DNA from: Candidatus Latescibacterota bacterium
GTDB lineage: Bacteria > Latescibacterota > UBA2968 > UBA8231
Direction: 5' to 3'
DNA: 64,000 bases
NCBI GenBank assembly: GCA_965197905.1
Contig: CBDAOB010000003.1
Location: 896,001 to 960,000, forward strand
Shown here: in pieces, positions 21,827-59,686 of the stretch
Numbering within the stretch: the first letter of the stretch is position 1
How the letters are laid out: every line of letters begins with the position of its first letter
The notes under the pieces: model-generated
What the model saw: only the letters and a program-made list of their open reading frames with translations
Databases searched by the model: none
What the model was told of the DNA's origin: nothing
Translations under genes and position numbers: made by a program

Positions 21827-24522
21827 ATGGCTGCATCTAATTCCCCCCAGGGGTCTCGTTCCCTTCCGGAACATCCCGATCTTCACCAACTCAAGAAACA
21901 GGCCAAGGAACTGCTCAAGGGCTATCGCTCTGGTAATTCGGCAGCGGTAGCTGAGGTGGAAACCCACGAGCGGGAGCCGGATCCAGGAAGATTCTCCCTG
22001 AACGATGCGCAGCGGGTGTTGGCCCGGGCATACGGGTTTACCAGCTGGGCGCGGCTAGTTGAGCGCGTAAACGGCTTTAGCGCCGAACGCTTTTGGGTAG
22101 CCGCCCAAGAGGGGGATCTGCAGACCCTGAAGTCGATGGTTGCCAAACGACCTGCGTTGGTCATGATGGCACGGCCCAGCCACGGCAATCCGTTGCATTG
22201 CGCCGTGCTCAACCGGGACGTTGCATGCGCTCGCTTTCTGCTCGAAAACGGAGCCGATCCTCACAAAGGTGTCTATCCGCACCGTGAGTCCACTTCCCCG
22301 CTTGTTCTGGCACAAGAAAGGGAATTCGACGACATCGTAGAGGTCATTGAAACCGAGCTCCAGCAACGGAGGTTACGGGTCGGCGCCACGCGATCAGATA
22401 CGAGAGACGTTGCAGAGGCGATCCGCAAAAACGATGAGGACGCCGTGTACCGGTTACTAGAAGCGGACGCTGAACGCGTGACGGCCGTCGACGAACGGGG
22501 CCGCAAGCCCCTGCATCACACTGCTGCGGCGCGCAATCGGACGCTGACCGCACGCATCTTGCAATTGGACCGCAAACTCTCCGAACCTGACGTCGACGGT
22601 TTGAGCCCGATCGACTGCGCCGTGTTGGCGGCCGACTGGACGCAGAGAGAGGAAACTACGAGGGCGGGCAGATCCGTGGCCGAACTCCTGTTAGAGCACG
22701 GAGCGGATCCTACGCCGCGAAGCGCCGCAGCGACCGGAGACTTGGCGTATTTGCAATCACTGAATCGCACAAACCTGGAGGCATGCGCCATAGACGGTGG
22801 TGGTGGGTTGTTGACACTGGCCGTGAAATACGGCCAACGGGAAGTCTTGAACCATCTGCTGGAATCAGGTCTGGACCCGGATGAGCGCGTGCAACTCGAC
22901 GATGCAGAGGAAGAGATCTACACCTGGGGAATGCCGCTCTGGCACGCCGCTTCCTACTCCGAATACGAGATGGCGGAATCGTTGATCGCTGCCGGCGCTG
23001 ACGTTAACGCGGCAGTTTATGGTGCGCCGTGCTAAGGCGCACATCTTCAGTGGGTGCGAATCCCACCCGGCAAGGGTCGCTCCAGCCGGTAGCAATCGGA
23101 GCAGTGGTGGAGGCGACGAAGCCGCTGAAGCCTCCGGTGTAGAGGGTCGCCTTGGGCGACTTGGCGAGCACACAGGCCGTAACGTGAGTAAACGCTGAGC
23201 AGGCCTCGAAAAGTGTAATGCGGAAGCCGACCTGCCCGTAAACCAGGGAAGGCCGCTGCAGCTGGGGAAGTCGAGCGACAAGCGCACTCAGCTGTTCCGC
23301 CGGGGTAGTGGCGACAGCATGTGTGTAAGAGGAGATGTGGCGCAACACGGGAAGCCTCATCCGGTGGAAGCAGCGAGTGCCTCCAACCGGTAACCCGCGA
23401 GGGCCAGACTGGGCTGGATGAGGTGGCGGACAGGCGCGTAGTACCGAGGAAGCCGGGTAACTCCGGTGGAGGGAAGGGGCCTGACTTCGGACATGCTGCG
23501 GAAGTGCAGAGGGTTGGAGAGTGGCGTGAGCCTATTGCCTCCAGCAGTAAGACTAGTATGCATCGGAAGCAGCTTGACTACCAGGTGAAGTCCTTGTGGC
23601 GTGTGCCTGGATGTGACGTTCGTCGGGAAGCCGGATGCGGGAGATCCGCACGTCCGGTTTGAGGCGGCGGGAACTGGAAACGTAGCGATGGGAGTCGGAC
23701 TGAGGGCTATGGCGAAAGCCATGGGGAACCCACCGAACCCTAAGGCTGGCGCGCCAGTTCTCGACCCTACCCAGCGGTTCACCGATGGACCGGGCTTACG
23801 GTGCCGACGATGAGAAGATGAAGGTCTTGTTGCGTCGCCACGGTGCGTTCACTAGCGTCGAAACCATGGGACTGTATCGCGACACCGAAGCGGCACGAGC
23901 AGTCCTGGAAGGAAGGACGACCGCGTACTCTCATCCCGACCCGGTCAGAGACGGTTCTACCGCAGAGAATATGCTATGGGGGGCGGCCTGTGGGGGCGAT
24001 CCCGAGATCGTCGCCATGTGTCTCGCCCGCATCGACCGTGCACCGGACGATTCATGGTGGGCGGTAATCCTCCTGCAACCCATGCGCACGTGGAACCATG
24101 GTTACCACCGACGCCATTCGGGCTTCGACAGGTCTACCTATACGCAATGTCTCGACTTGCTGTTGCAGCACGGCATCAATCCGGACGTTACGGATCAACG
24201 GGGGTTCACTGCGCTGCACGATCTTGCCCACGGCTCTTGTTCAGGTTCCTGGAACATGACGGAAAAGGAGGAACTCGAATTCGGCCGCCTGTTGTTGGAT
24301 GCCGGCGCCAGTTTGGCAGCGCGCGATCCGCTACTAAGGTCAACGCCTCTGGGATGGGCTTGCCGCAACGGTCGAATTCGGCTGGCTGAACTAATGATCG
24401 AACGCGGCGCTGCCGTCAACGAACCGGACGCCGAACCCTGGGCAACGCCACTTGCGTGGGCAACGAAGATGGGTCACGAAGAGATTGTGACGCTGCTTCG
24501 AGGTCGCGGGGCGAAGGCGTGA
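21827..24522 (+). CDS. Ankyrin-repeat protein, 648 aa after splicing: join(21827..23021,23771..24522)
   Basis: Ankyrin repeats in both exons (NPLHCA, LLENGAD, TPLGWA, TPLAWA). Removing the intron gives in-frame ...DVNAAVY-A-SGSP-MDRAYG... N-terminal LPEHPDLHQLKKQAKELL...AQRVLARAYGFTSW domain. Confidence 0.9.
23022..23770 (+). mobile_element. ORF-less group II intron (IIB-like ribozyme), 749 nt
   Basis: 5' GTGCG; domain III-like element ~23431-23483; domain V AAGCCGGATGCGGGAGATCCGCACGTCCGGTTT (23628-60) with AGC triad; domain VI ending CTCGACCCTAC with candidate branch A at 23764 and terminal AC; EBS1 CGTAAAC (23237-43) pairs with exon end GTTTATG; no RT ORF. Confidence 0.95.
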
Positions 24523-53645: not shown

Positions 53646-55802
53646 ATGTCAGATCTAGCCTGGTGGCTTGAGAAATCGAGCATGGATTGCTCTCCAGATA
53701 AGTATTCTGAGGGGGAACCTGTCACCTCCAACGACCTGCGCCCCAACAGTGGTCTGCGTGAGGGCGACATTTCTCACGCCGAGGTAAACGACTTTCTCCG
53801 CGTTCTTCCAAAGACGATCATATTCGGCCAGCAGAATCGGCTCCGCCCCGACGGCTTATTGCTGGATGATGAGAAGCTGCCCCGCTTCCACTCCGGCCAC
53901 GATCTGGTAAAGTTTTTCTACAGCGGCGTACGACAGCTGCCCGAGTACATCGTGGACGCGCTGCTGGCCAGCGGTATAAGCATCACGCTGGTGAAGAGCA
54001 CGGACCTGCTGGTTTACTATCACCCCAGGAAGCATCAGTCGTTTCATACCGGGCGTACTCGTAAGACGATCTACATACCCGAAATGGTTCTGCTGGAGGC
54101 GTACGACAAGGGGTACGATTACTGGGCGATCAGCGAAGTTATCATCGAGGAATCCTGGCCTCTCCTAGACTACCTGCTGATTCTGGATCTGGTCCGTCGC
54201 TCTCAGAGCCATCTTCGTGTTCGGTTTACGCTCGGACGCGGGTTTGTCCTAGAAACATTAAGACAGGCCAACAAACATCTAATGGAGAACGAGGACTATA
54301 CTGAGAACGAGTTCAATCTGTTCTTCGGGCAGTACCAGAACAAATTTCTGGCGATGGGTCGGGAGATCCTTGAAAAGGACGCCACCGAGCTGGTCGATGA
54401 GATCTTCGACGAAGAAAAGGAGCGGACATGGGCAAGCAACAAGCTCTACAGTGTCGTCCAGTCCTTCAACTACCCGACATTCTACAACATCGATCGCGAC
54501 ATCGTGCACCCGGCGGCTATGCGCATTGCCACCAATCGGGGCATTCCAACCGAGCCGCAAACGGTGGAGGATTATCTCCACGATCTTGGAGACGCAGCCC
54601 GCTTCGAGACTGGAGTCCAGATCAAGACCGATGCTATCATCGACAAGCTCATCGCCATCGGCGCACCGGGGATCCGCGGTTACGCCAGCCTCGGCTGGAG
54701 CATGGAGGTGTTTTACGGGGCTGGCTACTACCCCACCCTCGAGTTCAAACGCAAGCTACAGGTCTTTTCAGCCTCTCCCCCCGACGGCATTCCCGGAAGC
54801 ATATCACACGATTTCGAACGCCTGTTGCATCTGGAAGAGTTTGAGGAGCTACATCGGCGCTATCTGGACTTCGACCAACTTCCCTTCAGGCGGAAACGCC
54901 TGATACTTCTGAAATTGCTCGACGCATCGGGCACGGCGGATCGACGTCAACTGACCTTCGAGATCGACAATACACTGTCCTACGCCAACGACGACACTGC
55001 GATCTTGCGCGGACTCGCAGATATTTTCTACGAATACTATCTGAATGTGGATCGGCAAGAGCCCGATTGGGAGAGTTACTTTCTGGGACGCACATTGGTC
55101 AAACTCGATAGACACCCCGAATATCACGAAACGATTCTCCCCCAGTATATGAGTTTGAGTGACCATCCGATCCCGGTCTTGTCAGACGATCAGGGAGCGA
55201 GGGTGATGGCCTTGATGGCGCTGATACCTGAAGACCCGCTACGTCAATCCTTCGATCCGCAGCGTCTGCGGGCCCGTCTGTATCTATTCGAGCAGGCGCA
55301 CGCCACAGATCCCAATGATGGGGAGCTGGTCCCTCTTCTCGTGGGTATCCTACTGCGTCTGGATCGCTGCGAGTACTATGATCAGATTGCGGCAACCGTG
55401 AGAGCCCTGGGTGAAGTGACCAGGCCGATCTGTCTCGAACTGGTTGAACAGATCGGCGAGAAGGACCTTCGGCGGCAGAGGATTCGGCAGACAGCCCTGC
55501 GCCTGCTCGCAAGCTCTGAACCTAGCGAAAAGTCAAACGATGCCGTCGCTGGTGCCGAAGGGGCCATGAATTCTCCGCTGCTGATCCAGGGTTTCTACCA
55601 GGTAATGGGCAAAGAGGCAGCCGTTTTTGACTTTGGAGACGGACCGGTCTTCGGTCGCGACCAGCCAATGATTTCGACGATGAAAGATGAAGGGTTTACT
55701 CGCGAACGGATCGCCGCAGCGCTCACTGCAGAGGATGCTGAAATCCCCCGTGAGCACCGGGCTGTTCTGCGGGTCCTTTTTTGTGGGGGATATAACACCT
55801 AG
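53646..55802 (+). CDS. Conserved hypothetical protein (paralogue of 1809-3701)
   Basis: 718-aa ORF with the same conserved blocks as the 1809 ORF; true start may be ATG 53682. Confidence 0.8.
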   Translation: MSDLAWWLEKSSMDCSPDKYSEGEPVTSNDLRPNSGLREGDISHAEVNDFLRVLPKTIIFGQQNRLRPDGLLLDDEKLPRFHSGHDLVKFFYSGVRQLPEYIVDALLASGISITLVKSTDLLVYYHPRKHQSFHTGRTRKTIYIPEMVLLEAYDKGYDYWAISEVIIEESWPLLDYLLILDLVRRSQSHLRVRFTLGRGFVLETLRQANKHLMENEDYTENEFNLFFGQYQNKFLAMGREILEKDATELVDEIFDEEKERTWASNKLYSVVQSFNYPTFYNIDRDIVHPAAMRIATNRGIPTEPQTVEDYLHDLGDAARFETGVQIKTDAIIDKLIAIGAPGIRGYASLGWSMEVFYGAGYYPTLEFKRKLQVFSASPPDGIPGSISHDFERLLHLEEFEELHRRYLDFDQLPFRRKRLILLKLLDASGTADRRQLTFEIDNTLSYANDDTAILRGLADIFYEYYLNVDRQEPDWESYFLGRTLVKLDRHPEYHETILPQYMSLSDHPIPVLSDDQGARVMALMALIPEDPLRQSFDPQRLRARLYLFEQAHATDPNDGELVPLLVGILLRLDRCEYYDQIAATVRALGEVTRPICLELVEQIGEKDLRRQRIRQTALRLLASSEPSEKSNDAVAGAEGAMNSPLLIQGFYQVMGKEAAVFDFGDGPVFGRDQPMISTMKDEGFTRERIAAALTAEDAEIPREHRAVLRVLFCGGYNT

Positions 55803-57595: not shown

Positions 57596-57624
57596 TTGAT
57601 CAATTATTCGATAGCTGCTAAATT
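57596..57624 (+). promoter_or_regulatory. Sigma70-type promoter for the wHTH-pentapeptide gene
   Basis: TTGATC (57596-601), 17-nt spacer, TGc-TAAATT (57616-24), AT-rich upstream tract. Confidence 0.6.
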
Positions 57625-57629
57625 ATGTC

Positions 57630-57645
57630 TGCGGGAATTCCCGCA
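57630..57645. promoter_or_regulatory. Perfect 16-bp palindrome, candidate operator
   Basis: TGCGGGAATTCCCGCA equals its own reverse complement and overlaps the predicted +1. Confidence 0.6.
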
Positions 57646-57670: not shown

Positions 57671-58891
57671 ATGAACGACTCGAGTCAGGAAATTTATCGG
57701 CATCTGGTCAAGGAAGCCCAGGCACCGATCCGCGATGGCGTGGTCGCCCAGACCGTTCCGGAAATGTCCGCGGCTGTCGGAAAGAGTGTCCGTTCCGTCG
57801 AGTACGCATTGAAGGACCTAAAGACTGATGGTCTGGTGCTTGAGCGGAAACATCGGTTGACCCGGGTGAAACTGCCCAACGGGCCAGGCCGGATGTTCAT
57901 ACGGGCCGATCTTTCCGGGCGCGACTTGCGAGACATGAACCTCGTAGGCGCCGATTTGTCCGCTGCAAATCTCACCGGCGCGGACCTTCGAGGGGTGAAT
58001 CTACGGGGCGCCAAACTGAATGAAACGACGCTGCGCGATGCGGATCTCGAGGGAGCTTGCATGAGAAACGTCACCGCCTTCAGGGCCGATTTCACCGGTG
58101 CCAACATTGTTGACACGGACGGGGCGGGCGGCCGTTTCCCACGAGTTCAGCTGGCGGGCGCCACTGTGCGGAACTTCCGAGTCGCTACCCCCTTGCAAAA
58201 TCAGAATATGTGGGATCATGCGTCTGTGGAGGTGGAGCAGCTGCCGGAGATGGTCGGGATCGGCCACACGCATTACTTGATGGCTATGTGGATGGAGGAA
58301 GCAATGAAGCACCATCCGCATTCGCCGGCTGTCTCAGGCCTGGTTGAAAGCGAGAGATACGGTTGCTGGGGAGAGTATTTGACTTTCGTGGGTCTGCATC
58401 ACCCCGAGTATCTTCGCGAATTTATCGCAGCCGGGAGGTGCGAAGACACGGATCCAATGTTACAGGAAAGCCTGGAGGAAGGCCTGTCATTCCTGTACGC
58501 TGCGCTGAATGGTGTTCCTGCGATCAAATTCGTCGAGGATCTGCTCTCGCACCCACTGCCCCGAATGTGGGCGGTGCATTATCAGTGGCGGCTGCAGCTT
58601 TTCAAAGATCAAGTCGGCTATAAATCGGTGGTGAGTCCGGAAGAGCTGGACAGCATCGGAGGATGCCCCACCGATCAGTGGGATTCGTTTGATCAACAGT
58701 GGTCACCCGAAACGGTTTTTCTGCCCAAGCTGCTGGACCATGCAACTCCCGCAGTGATAGCCAGGGTTCGAAAGAATATCGAACGAATAGGTCCGTTGGA
58801 GATCCCGGACCTGGCCGCAAAATTCTGCGCGGATTTTGAGGAAAGCGAGTATTCCGCTGGCTCTGGGAGTTATACGGAAGCTGCCGGTTAG
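57671..58891 (+). CDS. Winged-HTH + pentapeptide-repeat protein with unrecognised C-terminal domain
   Basis: TVPEMSAAVGKSVRSVEYALKDLKTDGLV (wHTH-like); A(D/N)Lxx repeats ADLSG-RDLRD-MNLVG-ADLSA-ANLTG-ADLRG. Confidence 0.8.
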   Translation: MNDSSQEIYRHLVKEAQAPIRDGVVAQTVPEMSAAVGKSVRSVEYALKDLKTDGLVLERKHRLTRVKLPNGPGRMFIRADLSGRDLRDMNLVGADLSAANLTGADLRGVNLRGAKLNETTLRDADLEGACMRNVTAFRADFTGANIVDTDGAGGRFPRVQLAGATVRNFRVATPLQNQNMWDHASVEVEQLPEMVGIGHTHYLMAMWMEEAMKHHPHSPAVSGLVESERYGCWGEYLTFVGLHHPEYLREFIAAGRCEDTDPMLQESLEEGLSFLYAALNGVPAIKFVEDLLSHPLPRMWAVHYQWRLQLFKDQVGYKSVVSPEELDSIGGCPTDQWDSFDQQWSPETVFLPKLLDHATPAVIARVRKNIERIGPLEIPDLAAKFCADFEESEYSAGSGSYTEAAG

Positions 58892-58894
58892 TAC

Positions 58895-58939
58895 AAAAAA
58901 ATAGGCGCATCGTCAGGTCGGCAAACTCGCCGATGCGCC
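58895..58939 (-). terminator. Intrinsic terminator for a minus-strand transcript
   Basis: 9-bp stem GGCGCATCG(58904-12)/CGATGCGCC(58931-39) with an A7 run at 58895-901, which is the U-tail on the minus strand. Confidence 0.7.
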
Positions 58940-58981
58940 ATATTGCACAAGGATCACCCTAGGAGGGTTGGACCATGTACG
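58895..58981 (-). ncRNA. Predicted ~85-nt antisense sRNA
   Basis: Lies between a minus-strand promoter and a minus-strand terminator; complementary to the RBS and ATG of the ORF at 58975. Confidence 0.5.
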
Positions 58982-59052
58982 TATCACAATCTACGAATCA
59001 AGAATTCTTATTGCAAGAAAATATTCGTGGCTGCATGCGGGTGGGGCAATAA
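58975..59052 (+). CDS. 25-aa leader-like peptide MYVSQSTNQEFLLQENIRGCMRVGQ
   Basis: AGGAGG (58961-66) 8 nt before ATG; its stop overlaps the next start (TAATG). Confidence 0.5.
   Translation: MYVSQSTNQEFLLQENIRGCMRVGQ
58988..59016 (-). promoter_or_regulatory. Minus-strand sigma70-type promoter
   Basis: TTGCAA (59016-11), 17-nt spacer, TAGATT (58993-88). Confidence 0.6.
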
Positions 59053-59255
59053 TGTCTCGCGCGACCTACCGGCACGTGACCGACGAAGGAATCCTCGAGA
59101 TCGACGAGACTCGAGCCCGCATTTTGATCGAGTCCCGCTACCAGCCCTCCGTCCATGCCGTCATGATGAATGATCTACAGGCTGGCAACCGAATCGAAGT
59201 GCGCAAGGGCCACATTGAAGTGGTGCAAACGTTGTCCGCGGAGGCTGAAGCCTGA
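59052..59255 (+). CDS. Small hypothetical protein (67 aa)
   Basis: MSRATYRHVTDEGILEIDETRARILIESRY...; ATG within the TAATG overlap; weak hairpin and T-run at 59276-59300 downstream. Confidence 0.6.
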   Translation: MSRATYRHVTDEGILEIDETRARILIESRYQPSVHAVMMNDLQAGNRIEVRKGHIEVVQTLSAEAEA

Positions 59256-59686
59256 TATCAGCCCGCTCCGGGCGCGGCCGGTCCATTCGGCCACCTTTTT
59301 GCAAGGCCGCCATGGCCTCGCTGACCATTGATCTCTAAATCTCGCCTCGCCTAACAAACTGCACGGTTTCGCCGCAGATCCCTCGCTAAAATCTGTTCTA
59401 CATCTGCTCGGATCACTTCCTCAGAAACGTGTGTAAGGTCTTCTGGGAGTAAGGTTCCGGCCAAGGATTGACCACAACGCCGAGACTGGCAAATGCCCTT
59501 GCCTAGGACCTCGTGCATCCTCACAGGCCGGTTGGTGTTTCGTCGCGTCCTAGGTAGATTGAGCCGTCGCGGGCGCCGTGACCAATACCTTCATCCATCT
59601 CAAGCGATTTCCCGGCTCCTGCAAGCTCACCATGACAAGGAAGGGCTCCGCAGGGAGCTGTCAACTCGGATCACCAGAGTCATTGA

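Follow-up and report, generated by a model that had tools for sequence, protein, structure and literature searches.

A cassette of about 1.8 kb in the 64,000-nt stretch of Ca. Latescibacterota DNA analysed here (the window) is probably a self-contained unit made up of a regulator, an antisense RNA, a coupled leader ORF and a small protein; we hold this with moderate confidence. The antisense RNA and the small protein each represent a new family, joined here by an established logic, and as a regulator cassette of narrow range the unit is undescribed: a literature search, with most subscription papers outside its reach, found no description of it. Read from the sequence, the most likely arrangement is a single mRNA for regulator, leader and small gene, with an antisense block at the leader start. 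That is, one promoter would yield an mRNA carrying all three; the winged-helix/pentapeptide protein encoded first probably represses that promoter through a palindrome at the start site; the small gene, its start folded away or lacking a Shine-Dalgarno (SD) sequence, would be poor at starting alone; ribosomes finishing the leader would reinitiate on it, as the conserved anatomy suggests; finally, a second promoter, inside the leader, would yield an antisense RNA of ~85 nt, the 5′ hairpin of which would pair over the leader SD and start codon. This would silence the leader and the small gene while the upstream regulator stays translated, and the RNA would thereby set the ratio of small protein to regulator.

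Four loci were compared: that of the window (genome G000) and three in G002, a genome of the same genus of Ca. Latescibacterota. L002 is the orthologue of the window locus; L003 and L013 are paralogues. Window and orthologue are 87% identical in DNA, and the four loci, from two genomes, count as three independent lineages at best. All four share one layout: a gene for a CRP-like winged-helix and pentapeptide-repeat protein, an antisense promoter, a two-hairpin RNA (83-88 nt), a leader (25-30 codons) and a small gene (61-68 aa). The layout is retained even in the two paralogues, in which the small proteins are 56% (L003) and 28% (L013) identical to the query; in L002 the figure is 79%. The first-pass annotation had seen four signals here, namely a minus-strand promoter, a minus-strand terminator, an SD and ATG within the footprint of the resulting RNA, and a leader overlapping a small gene. 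All four are confirmed as real: each was recovered at the position given below, and promoter, terminator, leader and overlap are kept at every locus. The elements it described stand, but the unit is larger than it supposed, since the gene starting at 57671, with its promoter and palindrome, belongs to the cassette. Its central proposal, a cis-antisense RNA over the ribosome-binding site (RBS) of a leader coupled to a small gene, came through each of the in silico tests suggested with it. The elements of the RNA are:

58988..59016, minus strand: antisense RNA promoter TTGCAA-17-TAGATT, inside the leader (TTGCAA at 59016-59011, TAGATT at 58993-58988).
58895..58981, minus strand: predicted antisense RNA of ~87 nt with two hairpins, its 5′ end placed from the promoter.
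58944..58980, minus strand: 5′ hairpin of the antisense RNA, with the anti-start-codon and anti-SD bases; it forms in all four single-sequence folds.
58895..58939, minus strand: intrinsic terminator of the antisense RNA, with a 9-bp stem identical at all four loci, an 18-nt loop and U7.

A generic scanner missed both ends of this RNA: the promoter has 8 of 12 consensus matches where the cut-off is 9, and the terminator loop of 18 nt exceeds a limit of 8. The promoter shape was therefore calibrated on the source genome's own tRNA and tmRNA genes. The motif TTG-N20-TAnnnT lies upstream of 23 of these 54 genes; on the opposite strand it precedes only two of the 54, and 200 shuffles average 1.4. 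It is the housekeeping promoter shape of this genome. At the four loci the antisense hexamers are TTGCAA, TTGCGT, TTGCGA and TTGCAA, with TAGATT in three cases and TACATT in one; the spacer is 17 nt throughout, and the distance from the end of the -10 hexamer to the anti-ATG is exactly 10 nt each time. Genome-wide there are 1224 such motifs, three of which lead within 40-140 nt to a stem of at least eight perfect pairs followed by a U-tract; only one of the three, the window locus, has an antisense SD-ATG, by a rule written post hoc.

The terminator arms lie at 58904-12 and 58931-39, and the A7 at 58895-58901 reads as U7 on the minus strand, 2 nt past the stem. The conserved stem after the A-run is GGCGCATCG...CGATGCGCC at all four loci. 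A second perspective supposes that there is no RNA at all: the hairpin, which starts 12 nt after the stop codon of the 57671 gene, would be only the terminator of that gene, or a protein-binding inverted repeat belonging to it, and the small gene would be an independent unit. The arms are indeed sequence-invariant beyond structural need, which would suit a DNA- or RNA-binding site, and the hairpin region on the sense strand (-26 to -32 kcal/mol) could stop or pause transcription even lacking a U-tract. The U-tract, however, is on the wrong strand for this account at all four loci (in the 8 nt past the stem, 7-8 of 8 positions are T on the antisense strand and 0-3 of 8 on the sense strand); the opposite-strand promoter is conserved while the spacer varies; a convergent gene able to use the terminator is present at L003 and absent at the other three loci; and no sense-strand promoter motif was seen between hairpin and small gene, either by reading or with the generic scanner. 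We consider the account very unlikely. As an observation in its own right, the two 9-bp arms are identical in the four loci although synonymous sites of the paralogues are ~73% diverged; invariance to this degree goes beyond what the structure needs and makes a sequence-specific binding site possible.

To return to the cis-antisense RNA, its predicted fold is unusually stable (z = -4.3 at the window locus, with none of 200 shuffles as stable; -3.6 to -8.2 over the four loci), and at each locus folding favours the antisense over the sense strand by 5-11 kcal/mol. RNAalifold finds 22 consensus pairs, two of which change on both sides; both are in the 5′ hairpin, which aligns poorly between loci, and the invariance of the terminator stem means that it offers no support from covariation. 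The loop region of the 5′ hairpin is only 32-58% identical across loci. The 5′ domain of each RNA is predicted to pair with its own mRNA at -65 to -85 kcal/mol and with those of the paralogues at only -25 to -36, so that co-resident copies can be controlled separately.

The RNA might instead act in trans, as an anti-SD small RNA of the SuhB/MmgR type; the leader would then be a by-product, and its AGGAGG just the reverse complement of a CCUCCU motif. The likeness is not empty. The RNA is of similar size, with a CCUCC-type anti-SD motif and a strong terminator, and suhB/MmgR (RF00519) is the best Rfam match in the region (18.4 bits, E 0.5), driven by CCCUCCU and the terminator. SuhB is reported to act with Hfq on the SD region of a trans target (bioRxiv 10.64898/2025.12.09.693200). 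The score, however, is far under the gathering cut-off of 41, which no Rfam family reached for this RNA, and the match is not repeated at the three other loci; Hfq (PF17209) has no match in any of 76 genomes of the family, most of them incomplete; apart from the anti-SD and anti-AUG bases, the divergent loop offers nothing that could serve as a conserved seed; of 910 starts taken as trans targets the best reaches -40.1, a value equalled by 10 of 40 shuffles that keep CCUCC; the RNA is fully complementary to its own cis target; and the conserved ATG, open frame, overlap and locked start would be left unexplained. A trans-acting role of this kind is accordingly improbable.

A different element in nine loci (L025-L028, L030, L032, L033, L036 and L037), unrelated to the cassette, does carry an anti-SD motif, UUCCUCCC, before the same terminator stem. 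The contigs are viral or from marine-type metagenomes, and most of them carry it in nearly the same form; from its sequence it looks like a phage-borne SuhB/MmgR-type small RNA.

The target of the cis-antisense RNA would be the leader, for which the elements are:

58961..58966, plus strand: Shine-Dalgarno AGGAGG of the leader; GGAG stands 7-11 nt before the ATG at all four loci.
58975..59052, plus strand: 25-codon leader ORF, ending TAATG; open at all four loci.
59041..59060, plus strand: 8-bp mRNA hairpin in which the small-gene start codon and an SD-like GGTGGGG are buried.

As had been noted, the SD and the ATG at 58975 lie within the antisense footprint, and the RBS can fold through ACCCT (58956-60) and AGGGT (58964-68); the predicted RNA covers SD and AUG at all four loci. 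For the leader SD, the anti-SD duplex is worth -6.9 to -12.1 kcal/mol. The leaders have 25, 29, 26 and 30 codons, overlap the small gene by 1, 13, 4 and 4 nt, and start 77, 77, 77 and 89 nt before it. The position and translation of the 25-codon ORF thus hold as first described, but the exact TAATG is not conserved. Moreover, wherever the ATG has an A after it, an ATGA overlap arises of itself, and two of the four overlaps are correspondingly weaker evidence. The frame is open at all four loci, and each of the other frames has a stop at two of them; shuffled leader intervals stay open 16-34% of the time, or about 0.02 for three independent lineages. The sole change in length is of 12 nt and keeps the frame.

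The peptide sequence is not conserved between the orthologues, and the residues that are conserved are those forced by the antisense promoter. Between window and orthologue, pN is 0.15 and pS 0.065, while synonymous divergence in the flanking genes is 0.28-0.29; a pS this low indicates constraint on the leader as nucleic acid, not as peptide. The leader would then be a coupling device. At the junction, the lock hairpin has 8 bp in the window; in the orthologue it reaches 11 bp, and a U-G pair there is replaced by U-A. L013 has a different, nested hairpin. The energy needed to open the small-gene start falls at the 94-95th percentile of 250 control starts at three loci and at the 72nd in L003, and a usable SD for the small gene is absent in L003 and L013. 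A start that is either locked or SD-less is the anatomy expected if coupling were obligate. Window and orthologue keep the SD-like GGTGGGG before the small gene (-7.3 kcal/mol), and leader-independent starts are therefore possible there. One ribosome-opening calculation was partly circular and is not counted as evidence. An alternative reading of this region, a 95-aa frame from TTG at 58968, was rejected: it has stops at two of the four loci, and contigs from four of six runs show a second, L002-like strain with a changed TTG.

Upstream of the hairpin, the unit comprises:

57596..57624, plus strand: sigma70-type cassette promoter TTGATC-17-TAAATT; TTGATC-17-TAnnnT at all four RNA-bearing loci.
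57630..57645, no strand assigned: 5-6-5 palindrome TGCGG-GAATTC-CCGCA, 5 nt after the -10 of the cassette promoter.
57671..58891, plus strand: 406-aa regulator with a CRP-like winged helix, a pentapeptide-repeat beta-helix, a helical C-terminal domain and a C-terminal EAAG.

The regulator matches Pfam PF00805 (E 6.8e-21), and its model (pLDDT 82) superposes residues 3-67 on CAP (3kcc; Z 11.4, rmsd 1.4, 64 aligned). A regulator of 406-436 aa ending in [DE]AAG is present at each of the four loci; dN/dS is 0.07 over the last 200 codons. A similarity to NleL/SopA (Foldseek TM 0.23; Z 18.5 at rmsd 5.8; at most 0.83 in the atlas) was attributed to the pentapeptide helix and set aside. The palindrome is perfect in window and orthologue and imperfect, at the same offset, in the two paralogues; two other sites with the exact pattern, in G000 and G002, sit inside ORFs. 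Its 5-6-5 spacing is that of CRP sites, which makes autorepression a reasonable proposal, and the palindrome is probably the operator.

Among 168 genomes the regulator family is confined to G000 (three genes) and G002 (five), at E ≤ 1e-25. Both genomes also have a tandem pair of regulator genes that lacks the RNA and has a receiver-domain gene behind it. In these pairs (L004:7047-10246, at about 1133-1136 kb of G000:C3, and L019/L023), one of the winged-helix/pentapeptide paralogues carries a C-terminal LuxR-like HTH; a single-domain receiver follows, and the genes are convergent with HDOD-like ones, these names coming from reading the sequences. The second gene of the pair has its own 5-6-5 palindrome, TGCAA-N6-TTGCA, in both genomes. 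The [DE]AAG C-terminus (58877-58891 in the window) is found in six of eight aligned regulator paralogues and ends eight of the 4165 long frames in G000, against 0.4-0.5 expected; these include, by reading, an SMC-like and a MoeB-like protein. It is possibly a lineage-specific degradation or sorting tag.

The cassette is patchily distributed: one copy in G000, three in G002 and none found in G001. Where G002 has 1,867 nt of regulator, RNA, leader and small gene at L003, G000 joins the same flanks with 60 nt; in G001, flanks that are 3.4 kb apart in the window are separated by 535 nt, and the cassette and the next gene are absent. The unit is thus present or absent as a block at two orthologous sites. 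Its flanks are chromosomal metabolic genes. Neither terminal repeats nor a target duplication was seen at the empty site, nor a mobility gene in the cassette, nor iteron-like repeats in the window region, and a reading as a replication origin or transposon was rejected on the evidence of the repeats and the duplication. The copy at L013 is found immediately past a duplicated 3′ half of tRNA-Val. A 50-nt duplicate of the tRNA 3′ half delimits the tRNA-Val island itself (L014:4155-8902, in G002), within which a gene pair reads as an addiction module and a further gene as helicase-like; a 244-aa HTH-pentapeptide gene sits just outside the island and is preceded by two 30-nt direct repeats.

Wider searches extended this range little. 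The genome collection returned only two of the G002 loci as further examples. The terminator pattern turned up in 11 metagenome and two viral stretches, none with the cassette layout, and in five other genomes, where the conserved loop is missing. A model of the RNA recovered the four training loci and one weak match in G029 (35 bits) that looks unrelated on reading. Metagenome and viral contigs yielded no locus for the small protein, and the best match among phage records was at E 5, with nothing better than E 5 among plasmids.

The product of the downstream gene, and what may follow it, are:

59052..59255, plus strand: 67-aa soluble protein of a new small family; dN/dS 0.10-0.24, model pLDDT 84.
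59276..59292, plus strand: possible weak terminator after the small gene, from the generic scanner (seven found against 3.9 expected in the region).

The protein is slightly acidic and is modelled as a beta-hairpin, two helices and a second beta-hairpin. Its dN/dS indicates purifying selection, the paralogue comparisons being near saturation. A single query finds seven proteins in the family and a profile finds 13 among 1033 candidates; there is also one fusion, P0010. The family occurs in two of 61 related genomes and in three of 168 from the phylum, one of the three a spurious weak match. This match, in G077 (E 8e-4), sits inside an unrelated long ORF; P0011 is a repeat-protein artefact. The statement that this is not a typical membrane type I toxin is upheld: the best 19-residue hydropathy is 0.23, and in eight of the nine members examined it is 0.09-0.47, with 1.07 in P0017.

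Attempts to name the protein gave little. There is no family for it in Pfam, NCBIfam or PADLOC; PHROG matches are weak and of unknown function (best E 0.0017); sequences of solved structures match only at E ≥ 0.06; Foldseek finds no match to the model in the PDB at E ≤ 0.001. A wide fold search gave at best Z 4.1 with 65 residues aligned at rmsd 5.5, and matches to small uncharacterised phage proteins reach TM 0.6-0.7 at E ≥ 0.02. Language-model features suggest a Crp-like HTH (HTH_46/HTH_Crp_2 at 0.90-0.92). The structure model, with its N-terminal beta-hairpin and two helices, does not clearly bear this out, and among the fold matches listed for it there is no winged-helix protein and none with a name. 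The labels of toxin, anti-repressor and mobile-element control proposed in the first-pass annotation are unproven, there being no homology or fold match to any of these.

What lead there is comes from the fusion. In P0010 the small domain is joined to a receiver domain (E 9e-7), and the best match of that receiver in G000 is the gene directly behind another regulator paralogue (86.7 bits, 45% identical; the runner-up scores 53.5). Each half of P0010 is thus found behind genes of the regulator family, which favours the small protein as a partner of the regulator; the regulatory role suggested in this way depends on one fusion protein. A search of longer proteins gave no further fusions, but it was weak enough to miss the known P0010; a prediction of the complex of small protein and regulator (score 0.00) spoke neither for nor against binding. 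The favoured candidate, at somewhat under an even chance, is a role as partner or modulator, either of the upstream regulator or of the signalling neighbourhood around it; some other function is possible though less expected, and a soluble toxin rather doubtful.

The toxin is nevertheless worth spelling out, as tight translational control and patchy, block-wise spread make it the main rival. Pentapeptide proteins such as Qnr, MfpA and McbG shield gyrase. An addiction module would use the same RNA control, with the 67-aa protein as soluble toxin and the RNA as type I antitoxin, and the pentapeptide protein might add protection. Several features suit it: the tight double control of small-gene translation, the presence of the unit in blocks lacking mobility genes, the adjacency of one copy to the tRNA-Val island and the paralogue specificity of the RNAs; hok, too, is controlled by the same logic (PMC4393325). 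Against it, the protein is not hydrophobic and matches no toxin or defence family in Pfam, NCBIfam or PADLOC, its domain is fused to a receiver in P0010, and the regulator paralogues lacking the RNA sit among receiver and HDOD-like signalling genes. An addiction module is on balance unlikely, but it is not negligible.

Returning to the unit of regulator, RNA, leader and small protein, the cassette resembles copA-tap-repA and sok-mok-hok in its working but is a member of neither: the RNA stays below every Rfam threshold, and the small protein is not a Rep protein and not a membrane toxin. The binding site of CopA is upstream of the tap RBS, whereas the RNA of the cassette is predicted to cover the leader SD and AUG directly. 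In R1, translation of the downstream gene is coupled to that of a leader ORF, and a small antisense RNA blocks this leader (PMC4393325); the reference list of that paper names an inhibitory structure sequestering the repA RBS. The cassette would share both features, an antisense-blocked leader and a lock hairpin sequestering the downstream start, and its predicted coupling anatomy is of this kind, with an overlap at four of four loci, a locked start at three and no SD at two. It differs in that the downstream protein is of 61-68 aa with no Rep similarity, and the unit is chromosomal. In hok/mok/sok the antisense RNA prevents translation of the leader mok, to which the effector is coupled (PMC4393325). 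There too the resemblance is in the complementarity of the predicted RNA to the translation start of the leader; unlike hok, the effector here has no transmembrane segment and an alpha/beta model, the leader overlaps by only 1-13 nt, and the unit also includes a large regulator gene upstream.

Phage immunity regions offer a further comparison. The gene order in P22 is arc-sar-ant (repressor gene, antisense RNA, target), as the cassette has regulator, RNA and small gene. The sar RNA, of 68-69 nt, pairs with ant mRNA and blocks translation initiation (PMC12197685). The cassette has an extra coupled leader and no phage context, and no antirepressor homology of the small protein was found in PHROG or phage records. 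The c4 and IsrK RNAs come from the same strand as their targets, and IsrK activates; the cassette RNA has its own opposite-strand promoter. In P1 and P7, c4 controls a downstream gene via its RBS, and in Gifsy-1 IsrK-orf45-anrP control passes through the leader orf45, which is conserved in nucleotides rather than amino acids (both from PMC12197685). Control through an RBS, and a leader apparently constrained as nucleic acid, are likewise features of the cassette, but Rfam has no c4 or other phage antisense family matching it at the gathering or E-value threshold. The likeness first drawn to hok/mok/sok, copA-tap-repA and c4-icd-ant therefore holds for the control logic and fails for membership: there is no Rep protein, membrane toxin, phage context or Rfam family.

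Plasmid replication, type I systems with membrane toxins and phage immunity regions all provide known cases of antisense control via a coupled leader. In the cassette this three-part logic persists among diverged chromosomal paralogues, in an uncultured group in which Hfq is not detectable, and would guard a soluble protein of no known family. Tight control is usual for proteins for which dose matters, and in this light a new anti-regulator and a non-membrane type I toxin are both good possibilities for the 67-aa protein. A bolder reading, speculative and with the odds well against it, is that the unit is a spreading chromosomal module of a new class. The regulator, with its CRP-like winged helix and pentapeptide repeats, would form a switch or an addiction pair with a small partner whose fold is undescribed, and the small domain would be controlled in two interchangeable ways: in some lineages by an antisense RNA, specific to each paralogue and acting with a coupled leader, and in others by a receiver domain that can be phosphorylated. 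If true, this would be the first described cis-antisense RNA family for this Hfq-less group within Latescibacterota. The narrow range of the cassette, one genus among 168 genomes searched, limits its general importance.

Some observations concern the surrounding DNA. The region of the possible terminator at 59276..59292 is not conserved in a three-locus alignment. Further downstream of the small gene, a patch of ~70 nt (window 59380-59520; L002:1810-1960) keeps 77% identity between the orthologues even though different genes come next, and the L002 copy includes a 30-nt inverted repeat. A 718-aa protein lacking a Pfam family is encoded at 53646-55802 on the plus strand of the window; it has a paralogue elsewhere on C3, and its G002 orthologue reads as a 577-aa ORF. 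Lastly, positions 23048-23187 of the window, also on the plus strand, hold a group II intron D1-D4-4 fragment (Rfam RF02003, 106.8 bits).
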